The translations under genes and the position numbers were made by a program. Positions 3,995 through 62,836 of a stretch of 64,000 bases of DNA are shown here, piece by piece (the first letter of the stretch is position 1; each line of letters opens with the position of its first letter). The notes under the pieces are model-generated. The model saw nothing but the letters and a program-made list of their open reading frames with translations, searched no databases and was not told where the DNA came from. This DNA comes from a virus. Taxonomy: Duplodnaviria > Caudoviricetes. The stretch spans positions 128,001 to 192,000 of the IMG/VR virus record IMGVR_UViG_2595698668_000001. One strand, written 5' to 3'.

Positions 3995-4966
3995 ATGTCT
4001 ACTGCATTTGTTCGTCGTAAAAAAGACCCGTCCGCCCTGCAAGCTCAACTGGAAGCTGTATCTAACAAAGGTGGTTTCCAACAAGACCTGACTGAATGGA
4101 AACTGACTGTTGATAAGAAAACCAAAGAAGGCTCCGCTATCATTCGTTTCCTGCAACCTAGTGATCTGGAAGGTATGGAAGATTGGCCCACCATCGTGAC
4201 CATCTCTAACCACTTTGTAGAGCGCGGTGGTAAGTACTACGTAGAAAACTGTACCGGTGGTACTCACAAGAATTACGACGGCTGCCCTGTGTGTCAATGG
4301 CGTAATGCTCAAGGTTGGGACTGGTCTAGCGAAGCTGATAAGAAAGCTGCTCGTGAAACTGGAACCAGTATCAATACCAACTACTGGGCTAACATCATGG
4401 TCATCAAAGACCCGGCTAACCCAGATAATGAAGGTAAAGTATTCAAATACCGTTTTGGTGTTACCATCCTGAAAATGATTCAAGCCGCTGCCGCTGGTGA
4501 TGAGGAAATGGGTGAAGCCAAGATTACCGTTACTGATCTGGACGAAGGCGCTAACTTCCTGCTCCGTTCTACCAAGAAGAACGAAAAGAATGGTACTCTG
4601 GAAACTTCCAAGTTCCAGCCGGTTGGTCCTCTTCCGGGTATTGAAAAGCCGGAAGTTCAGAAGGCAATTCTGGAAGGTATGCAGGATCTGCGTAAGATTG
4701 TAGCTGCTGACCAATTCAAGCCCTATGATGAACTCAAGAAGAAGTTTGATACTATTATGGGTGTTCGTGGTTCTACTGCTTCTGCAAAGAAAGCTGATCA
4801 AGAACTCGATTCATTCGAAGCAGATATGAAAAACTTCGAAGCAAGCACCACTTCCAAACAGGAAGTAAAGAAAGATGATACCGACGAACTGGCTAAAGCT
4901 GTGTCAGAAAGTGTAGGTTCCTCTGATGGTGATGACGACCTAGACGCTCTGTTGGCTGGTCTGTAA
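3995..4966 (+). CDS. gp32: Single-stranded DNA binding protein
   Basis: EWKL, A.IRFL, Zn ligands H..ENC..CPVC, YWANI.VIKDP.NP.NEGKVFKY, acidic tail DDDLDALLAGL. Confidence 0.97.
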   Translation: MSTAFVRRKKDPSALQAQLEAVSNKGGFQQDLTEWKLTVDKKTKEGSAIIRFLQPSDLEGMEDWPTIVTISNHFVERGGKYYVENCTGGTHKNYDGCPVCQWRNAQGWDWSSEADKKAARETGTSINTNYWANIMVIKDPANPDNEGKVFKYRFGVTILKMIQAAAAGDEEMGEAKITVTDLDEGANFLLRSTKKNEKNGTLETSKFQPVGPLPGIEKPEVQKAILEGMQDLRKIVAADQFKPYDELKKKFDTIMGVRGSTASAKKADQELDSFEADMKNFEASTTSKQEVKKDDTDELAKAVSESVGSSDGDDDLDALLAGL

Positions 4967-4972
4967 GAATTC

Positions 4973-4998
4973 AAAAAGAGACCTTCGGGTCTCTTTTT
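4973..4998 (+). terminator. Rho-independent terminator with CUUCGG loop
   Basis: AAAAAGAGAC-CTTCGG-GTCTCTTTTT after gp32. Confidence 0.9.
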
Positions 4999-5000
4999 TA

Positions 5001-5031
5001 GTTTACAACGTATGAAATTTTGTGATAGAAT
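5001..5031 (+). promoter_or_regulatory. Early (sigma70-type) promoter
   Basis: GTTTACA (T4-type -35), 18 nt spacer, TGaTAGAAT extended -10. Confidence 0.7.
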
Positions 5032-5049
5032 GATTTAAAACATAATGAG

Positions 5050-5658
5050 GTGAAAATGAAAAGTGCATTTCTAACAGACATTGATGGTGTATGTGTTTCA
5101 TGGCAAAGTAATCTACCGTTCTTTGCGGCTGAACATAACCTACCGACTGACGTAATTATCGAGATGATGATGGACGAGAAGTTTAGACCGATGAGCGAGA
5201 TTTTTAATTGCTCCCCTGCATTTGGTGAACAACTTCTCAGGAAATACAATGAAAGTAAGTGGATTCGTGGTCTCAAACCTTATAACGATGCACTGAAATT
5301 CATCAATGAAAATAAAGATGAATTCGATTTCATTGGTATTACTGCTTTGGGAACTAAGTTCGAAGTTGCTGCAAACCGGATGTCGAACCTGAACGTATTA
5401 TTTCCCGGTGCGTTTCGTGAAGTTCTGATCTGTGATCATAACGAAAGTAAAGAGAAACTGTTTGAAGAGGCATTTCAACACTATGGAAATCGGATAGTAA
5501 CTTACGTGGATGATCTACCTCATCACTGTGATATGGCTCGTAAGGTGCTAAATGACCGTTGTGGACTCAATATCCCAGTTTATGAAATGAACCGCCGTAA
5601 TAGCGACAAATCCGAATTCGTAGTTAACGATTTCAGTCAACTAGTAGGTAAAATTTAA
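5050..5658 (+). CDS. HAD-superfamily hydrolase (T4 30.2-like)
   Basis: LTDIDGV DxD motif, YVDD motif; upstream of ligase as in T4. Confidence 0.8.
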   Translation: MKMKSAFLTDIDGVCVSWQSNLPFFAAEHNLPTDVIIEMMMDEKFRPMSEIFNCSPAFGEQLLRKYNESKWIRGLKPYNDALKFINENKDEFDFIGITALGTKFEVAANRMSNLNVLFPGAFREVLICDHNESKEKLFEEAFQHYGNRIVTYVDDLPHHCDMARKVLNDRCGLNIPVYEMNRRNSDKSEFVVNDFSQLVGKI

Positions 5659-6119
5659 TGCAATATGAAGTAATTTGTGATGAAACAAATAATCCGATGT
5701 TAAATATTCAGTCTCCTGTTCCAACCTATTCTGTACCTCGCAGGGGGTACGTTTTTGTGCATCGTGGGATCTCTGGTATCTATGCTGGTATTCAGCTTGC
5801 ACATGCACTCGCACGACTTGTACATGACCAATACGCAAATACTGATATGATTGAGTGGATCCAAAACCACGAAACGCTGGTTGCTCTTGATGGTGGTAAT
5901 TCCGATAATATGAACCAGATTATGGGAATTTTGTATGGGGCAGATAATGTATTTTCGGCGTTTGAAGAACCCGATATGAACAATATGGTTACTGCAATTG
6001 CATATGTTCCATCTGAGGATGAAATGTTGGATATCGAATTCTATAAAAATAACAAGGAATTGATCCCTACAAATCCAGTAATCGATCTCCTTATTAAAAC
6101 TCGCACTCACAAAGGTTAA
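5658..6119 (+). CDS. Putative Pth2-like peptidyl-tRNA hydrolase
   Basis: YVFVHRGISG..AGIQLAHA...W...TLVAL...FEEPD...TAIAYVP resembles the Pth2 fold pattern. Confidence 0.6.
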   Translation: MQYEVICDETNNPMLNIQSPVPTYSVPRRGYVFVHRGISGIYAGIQLAHALARLVHDQYANTDMIEWIQNHETLVALDGGNSDNMNQIMGILYGADNVFSAFEEPDMNNMVTAIAYVPSEDEMLDIEFYKNNKELIPTNPVIDLLIKTRTHKG

Positions 6120-6122
6120 TAT

Positions 6123-7676
6123 ATGATTCTTGATATTCTGAACGAAATTAATACAGCCCGTGGTAGCGCAAAGCTGGAAGTTTTGAAATCACATGTAGAC
6201 AACGAACTTCTCTCCCGCGTATGTCTGATGACATACAGTAAGCAGATTACCTTTGGTATCAGCAAAAAGACATTCCCAGTCGTGTCGTCCCATACAGGGG
6301 AATGTAGTCTTGAAAAAGCTCTAACTTTCATGATGGAAAAATTTGCAACTCGGGTCTTTACTGGTGGAGATGCAATCAGTAGACTTTCCGAAATTCTCAG
6401 TCAATTGTCTGAATCGGATTCGGAAGTAGTTAAAAGGATCATGTTTGGTGATCTGGATGTCGGTATTAACGTATCCACTATCAATAAGGTATGGAAAGGT
6501 CTGGTTAAAGAACAACCTCAAATGTTGAGTAGCCCGGAAGATCAAAAACTAATTGATAAAATCCTCAAATTGGGTAATGCGTATGCAGAACTTAAGGCGG
6601 ACGGGGCTCGTGGATTTGGTGATGTGACCGGATTATCCACTGATGATGGTGTACATTTCTTTACCCGTAGCTCAAACGAATATTTGGGTCTTAATCGCAT
6701 TATGAGAGCGATTGATAAGATGCAATGCATTGGGTGGGTGTTGGACGGGGAATTCGTTGTACGCGCATCTGATGAGCCAGAAATCGATGTTATGGCATCC
6801 CTCATGGGTGATGTTGAAGAAGTTGAACTATCGAAAAGTAAAAAATACGATAAAACTGTGTTTGACCGTGAATCTGGTAATGGGATCATGAACACCTCCC
6901 TTAAAAACAGTATCACTCCGGAAGACTCAGAACGTGTGGTTTATCAGGTATGGGATATTGTACCCCGTGATGTGTATTATGGTTTGGTTCCATGTCCCCC
7001 AGAATTGACCCAACAGAAACGACGTCAAATTTTGATTGACTTCTTGTCTAAGTTGGATGATGATTGTATCCAGATCATTGAGTCTACCCCCGTAAAAACT
7101 CTTGCCGATGTACGCCGCGTGTATCAGGGTTATGTACAAGATGGATATGAAGGTATCATTCTTAAACACGGTGATTCTTTGTGGGAAAATAAGCGTAGTA
7201 AACTGTTTGTTAAGTTCAAGGAAAAATACCCGTTTGACCTTCGAATCATTGAGGTTTATCCTCATGACAAAGACCCTAACAAGGTTGGTGGATTTGTCAT
7301 GGTTTCCGAATGTGGTACTATCAAGACAAACGGCGGTAGTGGTCTTACTGATACAACACACAAGAAGTCATATAGTTCGGTTGACATTTTTAACCATCCA
7401 GAACTAGAACGATTTGAAGATAAGGGTGGTCAATTTATCGAAATCTATATCCCGTTGGAAGAACGTGGGGAACTAGACAGAGAAAAATTGATGCAGATGT
7501 ACCGCGATGGGGAACTTGATGATATGATTGTTGAGTGTGAAGTTAACGCACCAACCACATCAAAAACTCGGAAAGCTGGTGACCCAGAGTATAGTTTCTT
7601 CTTGCCTATCATCAAGAAACTGAGATGGGATAAGAATACCGCAAACCGCTACGAAGATGTTTTTGTTATCAGTTGA
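6123..7676 (+). CDS. gp30: ATP-dependent DNA ligase
   Basis: ELKADGAR (motif I), LDGE, EGIILK, WENKRS..KFK, C-terminal FLP..LRWDK. Confidence 0.97.
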   Translation: MILDILNEINTARGSAKLEVLKSHVDNELLSRVCLMTYSKQITFGISKKTFPVVSSHTGECSLEKALTFMMEKFATRVFTGGDAISRLSEILSQLSESDSEVVKRIMFGDLDVGINVSTINKVWKGLVKEQPQMLSSPEDQKLIDKILKLGNAYAELKADGARGFGDVTGLSTDDGVHFFTRSSNEYLGLNRIMRAIDKMQCIGWVLDGEFVVRASDEPEIDVMASLMGDVEEVELSKSKKYDKTVFDRESGNGIMNTSLKNSITPEDSERVVYQVWDIVPRDVYYGLVPCPPELTQQKRRQILIDFLSKLDDDCIQIIESTPVKTLADVRRVYQGYVQDGYEGIILKHGDSLWENKRSKLFVKFKEKYPFDLRIIEVYPHDKDPNKVGGFVMVSECGTIKTNGGSGLTDTTHKKSYSSVDIFNHPELERFEDKGGQFIEIYIPLEERGELDREKLMQMYRDGELDDMIVECEVNAPTTSKTRKAGDPEYSFFLPIIKKLRWDKNTANRYEDVFVIS

Positions 7677-19584: not shown

Positions 19585-19609
19585 AGGTGATCTCTCGATC
19601 ACCTTTTTT
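19585..19609 (+). terminator. Rho-independent terminator
   Basis: AGGTGATC-TCTC-GATCACCT followed by T-run. Confidence 0.75.
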
Positions 19610-19635
19610 GTATCTTTTATATACAAAAATAATTA

Positions 19636-19753
19636 GTTTCACTTGCAATCAAAGTATAAAATCTCTATAAGTATTTATATAGAAGATCTATAATTAGAAA
19701 GTGTGAGCGAAGCGAACAGGCGGCTACGCCGTCTCACTACGTTCGAGATCTAT
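19636..19753 (+). repeat. 118-bp structured non-coding element, copy 1
   Basis: Reverse complement of 61855-61974 apart from 3 substitutions and one 2-nt indel. Confidence 0.95.
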
Positions 19754-19791: not shown

Positions 19792-20352
19792 ATGAAAAGG
19801 AAAATTGTAACTCTTATAGGAACCAGATATCCTAATGAAGAGTATAAACAGTTGATGATAAGAATTGGAAAAGCTTTTTCGGATCGTGGTTATGGTGCTA
19901 GGTCTGGTGGTGCCATTGGTTCTGATACACTTTTCCTAACCGAATATGACCCAACATTAACCATTGTATATCGTCCTGATGATAGACCCGGTTGTGTTAA
20001 TGTCAAAAACCATGAAAACTATTATGAATTTGAATTGCTTGCTTCCCGTGTTCATGGGTCTGGAGTTGGCTGGGAATTTATGCCAATCGGTCACCAAGAA
20101 TTACACGCTCGGAACGTTCCTCAAGTTATGGGATTAAACCTCAAGTCTTATTCTGACTTAGTTGTATTTTGTGCAGAGGAATCGATACATGGTACTGTAT
20201 CTGGTGGAACTGCTACTGCGGTTAAAATAGCAAGAAGCCTAAATATACCTACCCTAAACATTATGAACCCAGTTCAAAGATCAAAACTTTGTAAATGGTT
20301 GGGTATTGATGATATACCAGTATTAGAAAAGGTTGACATTTTCAATCTCTAA
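19792..20352 (+). CDS. SLOG-superfamily (DprA/Smf-like) nucleotide-binding protein
   Basis: IGTR, G..ARSGGAIGSD, ARN..QV.G, GGTATAVKIA...IP..N. Confidence 0.8.
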   Translation: MKRKIVTLIGTRYPNEEYKQLMIRIGKAFSDRGYGARSGGAIGSDTLFLTEYDPTLTIVYRPDDRPGCVNVKNHENYYEFELLASRVHGSGVGWEFMPIGHQELHARNVPQVMGLNLKSYSDLVVFCAEESIHGTVSGGTATAVKIARSLNIPTLNIMNPVQRSKLCKWLGIDDIPVLEKVDIFNL

Positions 20353-60862: not shown

Positions 60863-61818
60863 TGAATTTAATACCACCTATTCCAACCATAGATACGTTG
60901 CAAAATGCGTTTGACCGGACACTTGAGTCCGGTCTTAATTCACTAACAAATTTATCAATAGATGCATCAGATGAAATACCAGACCTAACTAGGTTCATGA
61001 GAAAAGTAGAAAATTCGGATTTGGCTAGACCTAACATGTTTATTGTTCGGTTTGGGGATTTCCGAACATCTATATTCAGTGATGGTGTTTTTGACCGAGA
61101 TCTTCCGATATTTCCGGACTCAAATAGTGGGATGGACGTCAACGACAGCCTTTTCTCTGGTACAAGTTATGCTTGGCATAGAGTTCAGGATATTGCATTG
61201 GGACAAGCGCACAAAATCCTCACACCTAGCATGAAGAAGATTTTTGGTGCTTGGGATCCGTCCTTGATCCGAATCATACCGGGTGCAGGAGAGATCCTTG
61301 ACGGATTTTTGGGAACTGATTACGATGTAAACCGTGATCTTGCACTTATGGTAAAGAGTGTCGGTCTTCCTAGTTCTACTTTAGAAACGACAATCAACCG
61401 TACAGACAAACTACCTCGACATGAAGTACGGGGTAGAAACTACGGAACCATGAGTATGACGTTTTACTGTTCCCCTTCTTACGAGGAACGTTCTTTGATG
61501 CTAACATGGCAGAATACAATTGTCAACCCAAGAAATGGACAATTTGGATTTTATAATACGTATGCAAAGGATATTGACGTCATCACATTAGACCGTCATG
61601 GAGTTAAGCAATCCACCGTACATAATACAGGGTGTTTTCCCATAGAGGTAGGTGAAGTCCAACTAGATTTTGAGAACAATTCTCAAGTAGCGACCTTTAC
61701 CGTCACATTCGCTGTATCAACCACAGTGCATGTTCCTACTAAGGGTGAAGAGAACGGTATAGACTCTATAGAGAGTATCATAAGACGTACTACAGGCGTT
61801 GTGAAAGCCATACGTTAA
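60862..61818 (+). CDS. gp54: Baseplate tail tube initiator
   Basis: DLARPNMF.V.F, LMVKSV.LP, W.N.IV.P..G, GC.P..V....L....N.Q..TF.VTFA (tube-like fold). Confidence 0.85.
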   Translation: MNLIPPIPTIDTLQNAFDRTLESGLNSLTNLSIDASDEIPDLTRFMRKVENSDLARPNMFIVRFGDFRTSIFSDGVFDRDLPIFPDSNSGMDVNDSLFSGTSYAWHRVQDIALGQAHKILTPSMKKIFGAWDPSLIRIIPGAGEILDGFLGTDYDVNRDLALMVKSVGLPSSTLETTINRTDKLPRHEVRGRNYGTMSMTFYCSPSYEERSLMLTWQNTIVNPRNGQFGFYNTYAKDIDVITLDRHGVKQSTVHNTGCFPIEVGEVQLDFENNSQVATFTVTFAVSTTVHVPTKGEENGIDSIESIIRRTTGVVKAIR

Positions 61819-61823
61819 TACTA

Positions 61824-61847
61824 AGCCATCCTACGGGGTGGCTTTTT
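61824..61847 (+). terminator. Terminator identical to 19241-19264
   Basis: AGCCATCC-TACG-GGGTGGCTTTTT. Confidence 0.88.
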
Positions 61848-61854
61848 CATATCT

Positions 61855-61974
61855 ATAGATCTCGAACGTAGTGAGACGGCGTAGCCGCCTGTTCGCTTCG
61901 CTCACACTCTTTCTAATTATAGATCTTCTATATAAATACTTATAGAGACTTTATAATTTGATTACAAGTGAAAC
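61855..61974 (-). repeat. 120-bp structured non-coding element, copy 2 (inverted)
   Basis: Near-identical reverse complement of 19636-19753. Confidence 0.95.
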
Positions 61975-62050
61975 CATCTAAGATCAAGTCTTGAAGAACA
62001 TCATGTTACAATGTACTAAATAAGTATAGATCTATAAGGGATTTTTAACT

Positions 62051-62836
62051 ATGACAAACAAAACCACGATTGACAAGAGTGTACTTCTTGCTGCTATGCA
62101 GAAAAACGTACAACAGACCAATGTGACTTTATCAGATGGTAGGAAGATCAAGGTTCGTGCTTTCTTGATGAAAGAAATGAAACTGTTGATGCTGGCTAAC
62201 GAAGCTAATACTGGAATCGATGATGCAATCATTCAAATCGTAAAAAACTGTATCCTAACCGATAATGTTGATGTAGACCTTTTACCTGTGTTCGACTTAG
62301 AGGCTGTTTATCTAGCTTTGTATAAGCTATCAAAAGCCAGTCCTACTGTCCCAGTTATGTTTACTTGTGCTAACGAAATTCTTGATGAAGATGGTAATGT
62401 CCAATATGATCAATATGGTGAAATTGTTCGTTGTGGTTCTGATATCAAAGTAAACGTAAACTTGAATAATGCTAAATTGTCTGATGCACCAGATAACAAA
62501 ATTGTTCTGAATGAGAACATGACCGTTTATATGAGATATCCTAATATCAGCGAGGTTGAATATTTCAACGTAGAAGTTGAGTCTGACTTGTTTAACTTAA
62601 TAAATCGCTGTATTGACGAAGTTCATATGGGAGATCAGGTTGTTAAGGTTGGTGTTGATATTCCGTATGAGGATATTTCGGAAATTATGGAATATGCCGA
62701 TTCAGTTGCTTTGACCAAAATGGGAACATTTGTAACGGCTCTCCCCCAACATACTCTAAATATACCTGTAAAGTGTAAAAAATGTGGACACCAAGAAATT
62801 GTTACACTTAAAGGGGTAGAAAGTTTTTTCGCATAA
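62051..62836 (+). CDS. gp26: Baseplate hub assembly chaperone
   Basis: R.FL.KE.K.L..A, L..FDLE..YL.L, I.L.......MRYP, C..CG.....L.G..SFF; CTAAATA at 62016-62022. Confidence 0.85.
   Translation: MTNKTTIDKSVLLAAMQKNVQQTNVTLSDGRKIKVRAFLMKEMKLLMLANEANTGIDDAIIQIVKNCILTDNVDVDLLPVFDLEAVYLALYKLSKASPTVPVMFTCANEILDEDGNVQYDQYGEIVRCGSDIKVNVNLNNAKLSDAPDNKIVLNENMTVYMRYPNISEVEYFNVEVESDLFNLINRCIDEVHMGDQVVKVGVDIPYEDISEIMEYADSVALTKMGTFVTALPQHTLNIPVKCKKCGHQEIVTLKGVESFFA

Follow-up and report, generated by a model that had tools for sequence, protein, structure and literature searches.

A composite element of 118 bp, which joins an AT-rich quasi-palindrome with sigma-70-like hexamers to a GC-rich module of three mini-hairpins, occupies six conserved and evenly spaced loci in the genome of a T4-like Aeromonas phage (Straboviridae, Emmerichvirinae). 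The analysed stretch of 64,000 nucleotides, hereafter called the window, corresponds to bases 128001-192000 of the 231,743-bp virus record IMGVR_UViG_2595698668_000001. Judged from sequence comparison, we tentatively favour the view that the element is a cis-acting signal which would be active as locally single-stranded DNA (ssDNA) and which might serve the replication and recombination machinery as an origin-like or priming entry point at six sites.

Copies of the element and their positions

The initial annotation had described a twice-repeated element. This is true for the window, in which the two copies were located at 19636-19753 (+, copy 1) and 61855-61974 (-, copy 2), but not for the whole genome, which carries six copies (loci 1 to 6, Table 1) with copies 1 and 2 at loci 4 and 5. 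As that annotation had also reported, the window copies are 3 substitutions and one 2-nt indel apart when copy 2 is read on the minus strand, and both are intergenic: copy 1 is not covered by any open reading frame (ORF) of at least 40 amino acids, and copy 2 lies between a gene end at 61818 and a gene start at 62051. A GC-rich core of 51 nt is the same in both copies (0 of 100 shuffles matched).

The closest annotated relatives of the genome are T4-like Aeromonas phages of the genera Ceceduovirus and Ishigurovirus. When the whole records of ten relatives were searched, six strong matches each were found in G2, Assk, Aswh_1, ZPAH1 and phage 65, and five in avDM6; AS-sw, AS-zj, Aszh-1 and AsSzw2 carry copies as well, with Ns or truncation at the repeats. 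The matching phage records all belong to Aeromonas phages, and the presence of the element in 18 of 18 of them rules out the assembly artefact that had been considered initially. In the genome analysed here as well as in G2, Assk, ZPAH1, Aswh_1 and phage 65, i.e. in both genera, the six loci are occupied in the same order. The flanks are homologous to those of phage 65 at all six loci, and the distances between the copies agree with those in this phage. Because the loci are syntenic and their flanks homologous, the six sites are older than the split of the two genera. Indels or replacements adjoin the element at loci 2 and 5 only, and at locus 5 phage 65 possesses a second, inverted AT module and an 80-nt spacer instead of the GC module.

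The gaps between the six copies range from 25.6 to 49.0 kb and are unusually even. In 100,000 random placements, the probability of a smallest gap this large was 0.0039 with a uniform null, 0.0037 with intergenic sites and 0.0022 with length-weighted sites, and the probability of a largest gap this small was 0.0012. The orientation of the copies was also considered as a signal and was rejected, as four sign changes round the circle correspond to chance (32 of 64 arrangements). If the GC module alone is regarded, its absolute orientation is strictly alternating in this genome (-,+,-,+,-,+; chance 2 in 64), but a flipped module at locus 4 or locus 6 breaks this pattern in ZPAH1 and phage 65.

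Structure of the GC-rich and the AT-rich module

The three hairpin strings that had been named for copy 1 are all present (Table 1). For a comparison among the phages, 51 copies without N were reduced to 33 distinct module strings, 23 of which were aligned; eight strings differing only at the junction or flank, plus L042 and L131, were left out, and flipped modules were re-oriented so that like was compared with like. The first and the third hairpin have a common form, consisting of outer pairs, GA, a stem of 2-3 bp, a loop of 3-4 nt, the stem, GA and outer pairs. Of the 33 strings, 27 show a hairpin of this form on the top strand beside the AT module and a second one on the bottom strand at the opposite end. 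The remaining six comprise two Ishigurovirus locus-1 forms, two locus-6 forms, the AT-only locus of phage 65 and a metagenomic relative without the third hairpin.

The hairpins are conserved in the relatives, and compensatory changes support all three of them. With the three-hairpin model, 93.5% of the cells in the 23-row alignment are paired, and 6 of 12 pairs are changed on both sides (24 such cells). The covariation score was 0.272 in comparison to 0.116 in shuffles, none of 500 of which reached it, and slid controls scored 0.072 at most. The stem of the central hairpin 2 varies in sequence among the copies, while its pairing is kept. The tandem G.A pairs and GNA triloops that had been noted at first hold throughout: the G.A positions are invariant in 21, 23, 23 and 23 of 23 rows, and a GNA loop is present in 19 of 23 rows for hairpin 1 and likewise in 19 of 23 for hairpin 3 on the other strand. 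Among 16 distinct central hairpins, 13 have triloops, and 10 of these read GNA on one strand. Of 12 occurrences of the strict hairpin motif in the genome, 10 fall within the six elements, in comparison to a mean of 0.45 occurrences in 20 simulated genomes. The compensatory changes together with the invariant G.A pairs indicate that selection acts on the predicted structure.

Two other foldings were rejected. The long imperfect hairpin preferred by RNAfold reaches about 90% pairing, shows a compensatory change in none of its ten arm pairs, and several changes break its pairs. Pseudoknot-like pairings of GUGAG with CUCAC and of CGAAC with GUUCG are also about 90% paired, without any compensatory change (score 0.059; shuffle mean 0.068).

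Hairpins of this type are particularly stable as DNA, as had been stated in the initial annotation. In its accessible text, a review gives a stability for d(GCGAAGC) far above that of the RNA counterpart, with melting at 76.5 C for the DNA and at 39 C for the RNA octamer r(GCGAAAGC) (PMC13037366). According to the same source, mini-hairpin DNA binds single-stranded DNA-binding protein (SSB) poorly, and such mini-hairpins are located at the priming sites of G4, St-1 and alpha3, at ssiA of RSF1010 and at N4 promoters (PMC13037366). The GCGNAGC-type feature, a GNA triloop closed by C-G, is found in the element.

The AT module of about 65 nt is the best-conserved part, with 74-85% identity between this genome and phage 65, while neighbouring 100-nt blocks show 9-67%. 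The conservation spans all 65 nt and thus reaches beyond the hexamers alone. In phage 65 and avDM6, the first -10-like word is TATAAT and the spacer is 16 nt long. Between the -10-like word and the GC module the G+C content is only about 17%. In AT-only forms (ZPAH1 locus 3, phage 65 locus 5), the inverted end words of 20 nt agree at 16 of the 20 positions, and terminal inverted repeats like those of miniature inverted-repeat transposable elements (MITEs) were found only in these forms. Promoter activity of the hexamers appears plausible from their sequence; a simple consensus promoter scan does not call them at the window copies. The word of a MotA box is absent from the element, and a Pfam search for MotA gave no match, its control being silent as well.

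The words AGATCT (two per copy) and TATAAATA (opposite strand, 19672-19679), to which attention had been drawn initially, are present in the window copies and absent from the versions in phage 65 and avDM6. AGATCT/GATC was therefore rejected as a conserved feature. The same applies to TATAAATA as a late promoter, the enriched upstream word of the genome being CCTAAATA. As they are not conserved across the genera, neither TATAAATA nor AGATCT carries any weight. Unlike TATAAATA, the central dyad that holds it is retained in the relatives. The earlier remark that this word differs from the late-promoter word used elsewhere is correct: CTAAATA is 9-fold enriched and stands at most 80 nt before the start of 31 of 406 crude ORFs, whereas TATAAATA does so for 3 of 406. 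The likely late-promoter word of the phage is CCTAAATA(A/C), for example at window positions 62020-62050 upstream of a baseplate-hub-like gene.

Rearranged modules and neighbouring genes

The two modules can stand alone, be flipped, or lie on either side of each other, and their junction is an indel hotspot. Between phages the GC module can be flipped at one and the same locus, and in ZPAH1 the locus-4 module is the exact reverse complement of the locus-1 and locus-5 modules. As the architecture is a dyad, the flipped module keeps its layout, with the top-strand G.A hairpin first and the bottom-strand G.A hairpin last. AT-module paralogues within a genome are 84-85% alike in comparison to 78% for orthologues between the genera; among close relatives the order is reversed, with 95-96% for AT-module orthologues. 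These values suggest that the copies evolve slowly in concert or that they co-evolve with a trans-acting factor.

A pattern scan of viral contigs gave 50 loci, and true matches were restricted to phage 65, AS-zj and two metagenomic contigs, both of which contain distant relatives of the AT module. In the first of these contigs (G001, 16.4 kb; L091/L131), the GC word stands on both sides of the AT module as an inverted repeat. In the second (G002, 26.8 kb; L096), a gene directly follows the left arm and TATAAT, as it would an ordinary promoter. None of 60 candidate loci in bacterial and archaeal genome contigs holds the element, all being chance or unrelated matches. The Bacteroidales metagenome-assembled genome Md513_bin13 (L134-L193, JAISTG01...) showed more than 30 matches to the AT-rich search pattern and seems to carry its own, unrelated multi-copy repeat.

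On a crude ORF map, four copies are co-oriented with the neighbouring genes and two are opposed to them, and the loci include head, tail and fibre clusters. Copy 1 is preceded by a small ORF with a terminator and followed by a DprA-like gene (window 19792-20352, +; phrog_768, E 8e-52). At the same locus, phage 65 has homologous DNA with about 71% identity, annotated only as two small ORFs, so that the DprA-like gene is perhaps interrupted in this phage. Copy 2 is flanked by two late genes, a tail-tube-like and a baseplate-hub-like one, and its GC end abuts the terminator of the upstream gene. The copy at locus 3 lies 45 nt past the 3' end of a gp34-like long tail fibre gene and is situated beside a homing-endonuclease-like gene (phrog_7363, E 5e-139; genome 120968-121870, +, outside the window), which lies between an NrdA-like gene and this locus.

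In assemblies of public runs, contigs break off at the element, with loose ends that correspond to flanking sequence of the other loci. The summed contig depth at the element was about six times that of the flanks (run X1; assembled contigs). Runs labelled 'RNA?' had adapter-like loose ends, behaved like DNA assemblies and yielded no usable sign of transcription. In the RefSeq record of AS-sw (NC_048674.1, 'partial genome'), the flank of the inh region is duplicated (4092-6389 and 120516-122836), and one copy of this flank is joined via the repeat to genes of locus 1 (loci L025, L046 and L009). Single Ns stand at the module junctions in the copies of AS-sw and AS-zj. Short-read assemblies of these phages thus appear to break or to become chimeric at the repeat.

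Table 1. Positions of the six loci in the genome and of the features of both window copies
Feature	Position	Strand	Remarks
Locus 1	genome 32053	-	
Locus 2	genome 81015	+	
Locus 3	genome 122051	-	
Locus 4	genome 147630	+	window copy 1
Locus 5	genome 189855	-	window copy 2
Locus 6	genome 219838	-	
AT-rich module, copy 1 (locus 4)	window 19634..19700	+	imperfect palindrome, 20-nt end word (19634-19653) to TTAGAAAG
Sigma-70-like hexamers	window 19643..19671	+	TTGCAA (19643-48), 17-nt spacer, TATAAG (19666-71)
Central dyad TCTATA-N8-TATAGA	window 19664..19683		holds TATAAATA on minus strand (19672-79)
Second TATAAT	window 19689-94	+	almost invariant
Hairpin 1, copy 1	window 19702..19718	+	outer pairs, tandem GA, GC stem, GAA loop, GC stem, tandem GA, outer pairs
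Hairpin 2, copy 1, central	window 19719..19733		GC stem of 4-6 pairs, 3-nt loop (TAC on +, GTA on -)
Hairpin 3, copy 1	window 19732..19746	-	TC, GA, AC, GTA loop, GT, GA, GA
AT-rich module, copy 2 (locus 5)	window 61907..61976	-	against two flanking + strand late genes
GC module, copy 2	window 61862..61906	-	hairpin 1 61890-61906, hairpin 2 61875-89, hairpin 3 61862-76
Intrinsic-terminator-like hairpin of upstream gene	window 19585..19604	+	about 30 nt before copy 1
Intrinsic-terminator-like hairpin of tail-tube-like gene	window 61823..61844	+	abuts GC end of copy 2

Possible functions of the element

If the element is an origin-like ssDNA signal, its AT-rich quasi-palindrome would melt easily, and transcription starting from the sigma-70-like hexamers of the palindrome itself might bring about this melting, in the manner of oriF and oriG of T4. 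The opening would then spread to the GC module, in which each strand could fold one compact hairpin with tandem sheared G.A pairs and a GNA triloop, flanking the central hairpin. These hairpins may resist coating by SSB and keep the bubble open, or they may mark a start or loading site on each strand. Their role would be analogous to that of the ssiA/ssiB pair of RSF1010 oriV and of the hairpins in the complementary-strand origin of G4. At oriV of RSF1010, the signals adjoin an AT-rich region and lie on opposite strands. A signal for origin-like function or priming that acts as ssDNA fits better than a plain promoter when five features are taken together, namely the promoter-like words within an AT-rich palindrome, the strand symmetry of the DNA-type hairpins, the fixed number of six copies, their even spacing and an orientation that is independent of the genes. 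The only new, indirect support for such a role comes from the regular spacing and the conserved positions of the six copies. As two copies are opposed to their neighbours, a promoter alone would not suffice. The more specific proposal that the six cassettes are the replication origins of this phage group, or loading sites for a primosome or helicase, is somewhat less likely.

According to the accessible text of PMC3016281, T4 possesses at least five dispersed origins, and about 100 bp with a promoter and an AT-rich unwinding element suffices at oriF and oriG. With these R-loop origins, at uvsY and gene 34, the element shares the length of about 100 bp, a promoter-like element followed by an A+T-rich stretch, and the occurrence at several dispersed sites. 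Unlike the element, oriF and oriG depend on MotA-dependent middle promoters and, as far as described there, have neither a shared motif nor a GC-rich hairpin module; outside these two origins the workings of T4 origins are reported as poorly known (PMC3016281). The complementary-strand origins of G4, St-1 and alpha3 and ssiA/ssiB of RSF1010 resemble the element in their compact GCGNAGC-type hairpins with a C-GNA-G triloop and a sheared G.A pair. However, the known examples stem from ssDNA phages or from a plasmid that replicates by strand displacement and has a primase of its own, whereas the element resides in a double-stranded T4-like phage and has no known cognate protein. The promoters of the N4 virion RNA polymerase likewise have a 5-bp stem and a 3-nt loop of the GNA type (GGA/GAA), and they are recognised in single-stranded form (PMC13037366, accessible text). 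They require, however, an N4-type virion polymerase, while the hairpins of the element have flanking tandem G.A pairs and occur in threes.

Several observations weigh against the origin-like reading. Fine synteny with the T4 origins was considered and dropped: uvsY lies about 9 kb from locus 4, so that fine-scale synteny with T4 oriF is lacking, and locus 3 is found at the 3' end of the gp34-like gene. In T4, oriG is located at the 5' end of gene 34. A map of GC skew and strand switches showed nothing at the six sites, and because all relatives are syntenic, the even spacing counts as a single observation. In this genus the -10-like word TATAAG lacks the final T, and the element is unlike the usual early-type promoters of the genome, which consist of an A-rich tract, GTTGAC(T/A), 16-18 nt and TGnTAnnAT. 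Regarding the hairpins, 3 of the 13 central triloops are AAA or TTT and 3 of the 16 central hairpins have tetraloops. The copies are related and partly homogenised, and the number of independent events behind the compensatory changes may therefore be no more than six to eight. When the GC module was folded by itself with nearest-neighbour models, which ignore sheared G.A pairs, the result was unremarkable (z -1.4/-0.8 as DNA, -1.2/-0.6 as RNA). Moreover, we infer the melting, the transcription, the folding in vivo and the link to replication. Finally, six identical origins would be unprecedented in the T4-like family, as T4 origins share no common motif according to the text accessible to us (PMC3016281).

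Nearly as likely as the origin-like reading is a cassette resembling the promoter (early) and stem-loop repeats (PeSLs), which are established in the T4-like phages RB49/phi1, PST/T4 and nt-1/KVP40 (PMC2839356, PMC4122927, accessible parts). The downstream gene would then be driven by the AT module as an early-type promoter, with the GC module serving as its structured leader or as an insulator, while the homology between the copies would mainly be a substrate for recombination (gene shuffling, gene conversion), without a role in replication. Like a PeSL, the element is a short composite intergenic repeat of a T4-like genome with sigma-70-like hexamers and a stem-loop, its copies are similar enough for recombination, and indels are adjacent, here at loci 2 and 5. 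The TATAAT form of phage 65 and avDM6 fits the PeSL promoter consensus TTGYVH-N17-TAWWAT given for nt-1/KVP40 (PMC2839356, PMC4122927). Four of the six loci have a co-oriented ORF that begins 18-90 nt past the element or somewhere in the 180 nt that follow. At locus 1 the element is immediately followed by a ribosome-binding site and ATG, and terminator-like hairpins precede the element at loci 3 and 4. The promoter-like arrangement on the second metagenomic contig and the closer similarity of paralogues within a genome than of orthologues between the genera also agree with such a cassette. Nevertheless, the element is not a PeSL in the strict sense, with regard to both position and kind of the stem-loop and to copy number and location. 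In the PeSLs described, the stem-loop is a terminator upstream of the promoter, whereas the structured module of the element lies downstream of the hexamers and has no T-run. PeSLs are numerous and clustered in hyperplastic regions, while the element is limited to six copies at fixed, conserved and evenly spaced loci, including late structural clusters. It also differs from the PeSLs described by its three mini-hairpins with G.A mismatches on opposite strands, which a plain leader leaves unexplained, and by the two copies opposing their neighbours; transcription from copy 2 would run into the terminator belonging to a convergent late gene. The conservation of the whole 65 nt and the deviating -10-like word likewise speak against a mere promoter. 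The PeSL-like and the origin-like reading are not exclusive, because T4 origins are themselves promoters.

A function at the RNA level is unlikely. In this case, an AU-rich long hairpin and the GC hairpins, transcribed in either direction, would form a processing or stabilising site or a shared operator recognised by an RNA-binding protein; at locus 5, the product might instead be a short non-coding RNA that stops at the adjacent terminator. As RNA, the whole element does reach a better folding energy than its shuffles (-29.4 kcal/mol, z -2.9; equalled by 0 of 200), covariation does not discriminate RNA from DNA, the dyad layout means that a transcript from either side meets a G.A/GNA hairpin first, and at locus 1 the module ends 6-10 nt before the ribosome-binding site. 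Yet no Rfam family came near its threshold, the five weak matches (E 0.31-6.8) being led by one of 22.5 bits against a threshold of 70 that lies outside the element, and most copies have no terminator after them. Besides, the third hairpin on any one transcript has tandem pyrimidine mismatches, and C-G-closed GNA triloops are a DNA stability motif, RNA versions of which are described as much less stable (PMC13037366). Slightly less probable still is a selfish or neutral palindromic repeat of the MITE type, which would have spread once in an ancestor and whose similarity would be kept only by gene conversion in a highly recombinogenic phage. The element resembles repetitive extragenic palindromic (REP) sequences and MITEs in being small, palindromic, intergenic, multi-copy and present in both orientations, and the AT-only forms with their inverted ends, the rearranged modules, the signs of concerted evolution and the chimeric assemblies at the copies could be explained in this way. 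Unlike in REP/MITE repeats, however, neither insertion polymorphism nor a transposase nor a copy in a host-type genome was found, and the positions are conserved across the genera. A search for a Y1 transposase (Y1_Tnp) was negative, with its control positive in 6 of 14 genomes. The option of a small mobile element proposed in the initial annotation is consequently weakened by the six loci being syntenic across two genera, the negative transposase search and the absence of the element from the bacterial candidate loci; compensatory changes, invariant G.A pairs and even spacing also speak against it. We consider least probable a cluster of sites bound by a DNA-binding protein of the phage or the host, with a role in genome architecture, in packaging or as a recombination hotspot, for instance through cruciform extrusion and cutting that would seed recombination-dependent replication. 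The dyad symmetry in both modules, the even spacing and the fact that all sites in one genome change together, as with a trans-acting factor, would be compatible with such a cluster. However, the word order of the GC module is a-b...a'-b' and its half-sites do not form a simple inverted repeat for a dimer, pairing and G.A mismatches are conserved instead of the stem sequence, and no candidate protein was identified in the protein searches, which covered Y1_Tnp and MotA.

The element is not described in the searched literature on T4-type PeSLs, the repeats of Aeromonas phage 65 and Ceceduovirus, Ishigurovirus and Emmerichvirinae, with many subscription papers and supplements lying outside this body of text, and the accessible part of the P19 genome paper mentions neither promoters nor this repeat. 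We rate it as joining known kinds of elements, i.e. the composite promoter and stem-loop repeats of T4-like phages or the mini-hairpin signals of single strands. With its compact, conserved form and fixed copy number, it offers a defined test object in jumbo Aeromonas phages, which are under development for aquaculture and therapy. A practical consequence is that the repeat breaks short-read assemblies of these phages or makes them chimeric. If the element is only a promoter cassette, it would extend the PeSL idea to a new architecture, and even then natural selection would keep DNA-type mini-hairpins with tandem sheared G.A pairs and GNA triloops on both strands. If the six cassettes prove to be the replication origins of the group or its loading sites, they would represent the first shared, sequence-defined origin motif in T4-like phages, in which an AT-rich unwinding palindrome beside mini-hairpins on opposite strands would act like an ssiA/ssiB pair, and the spacing of 25-49 kb would allow the whole 232-kb genome to be reached quickly.

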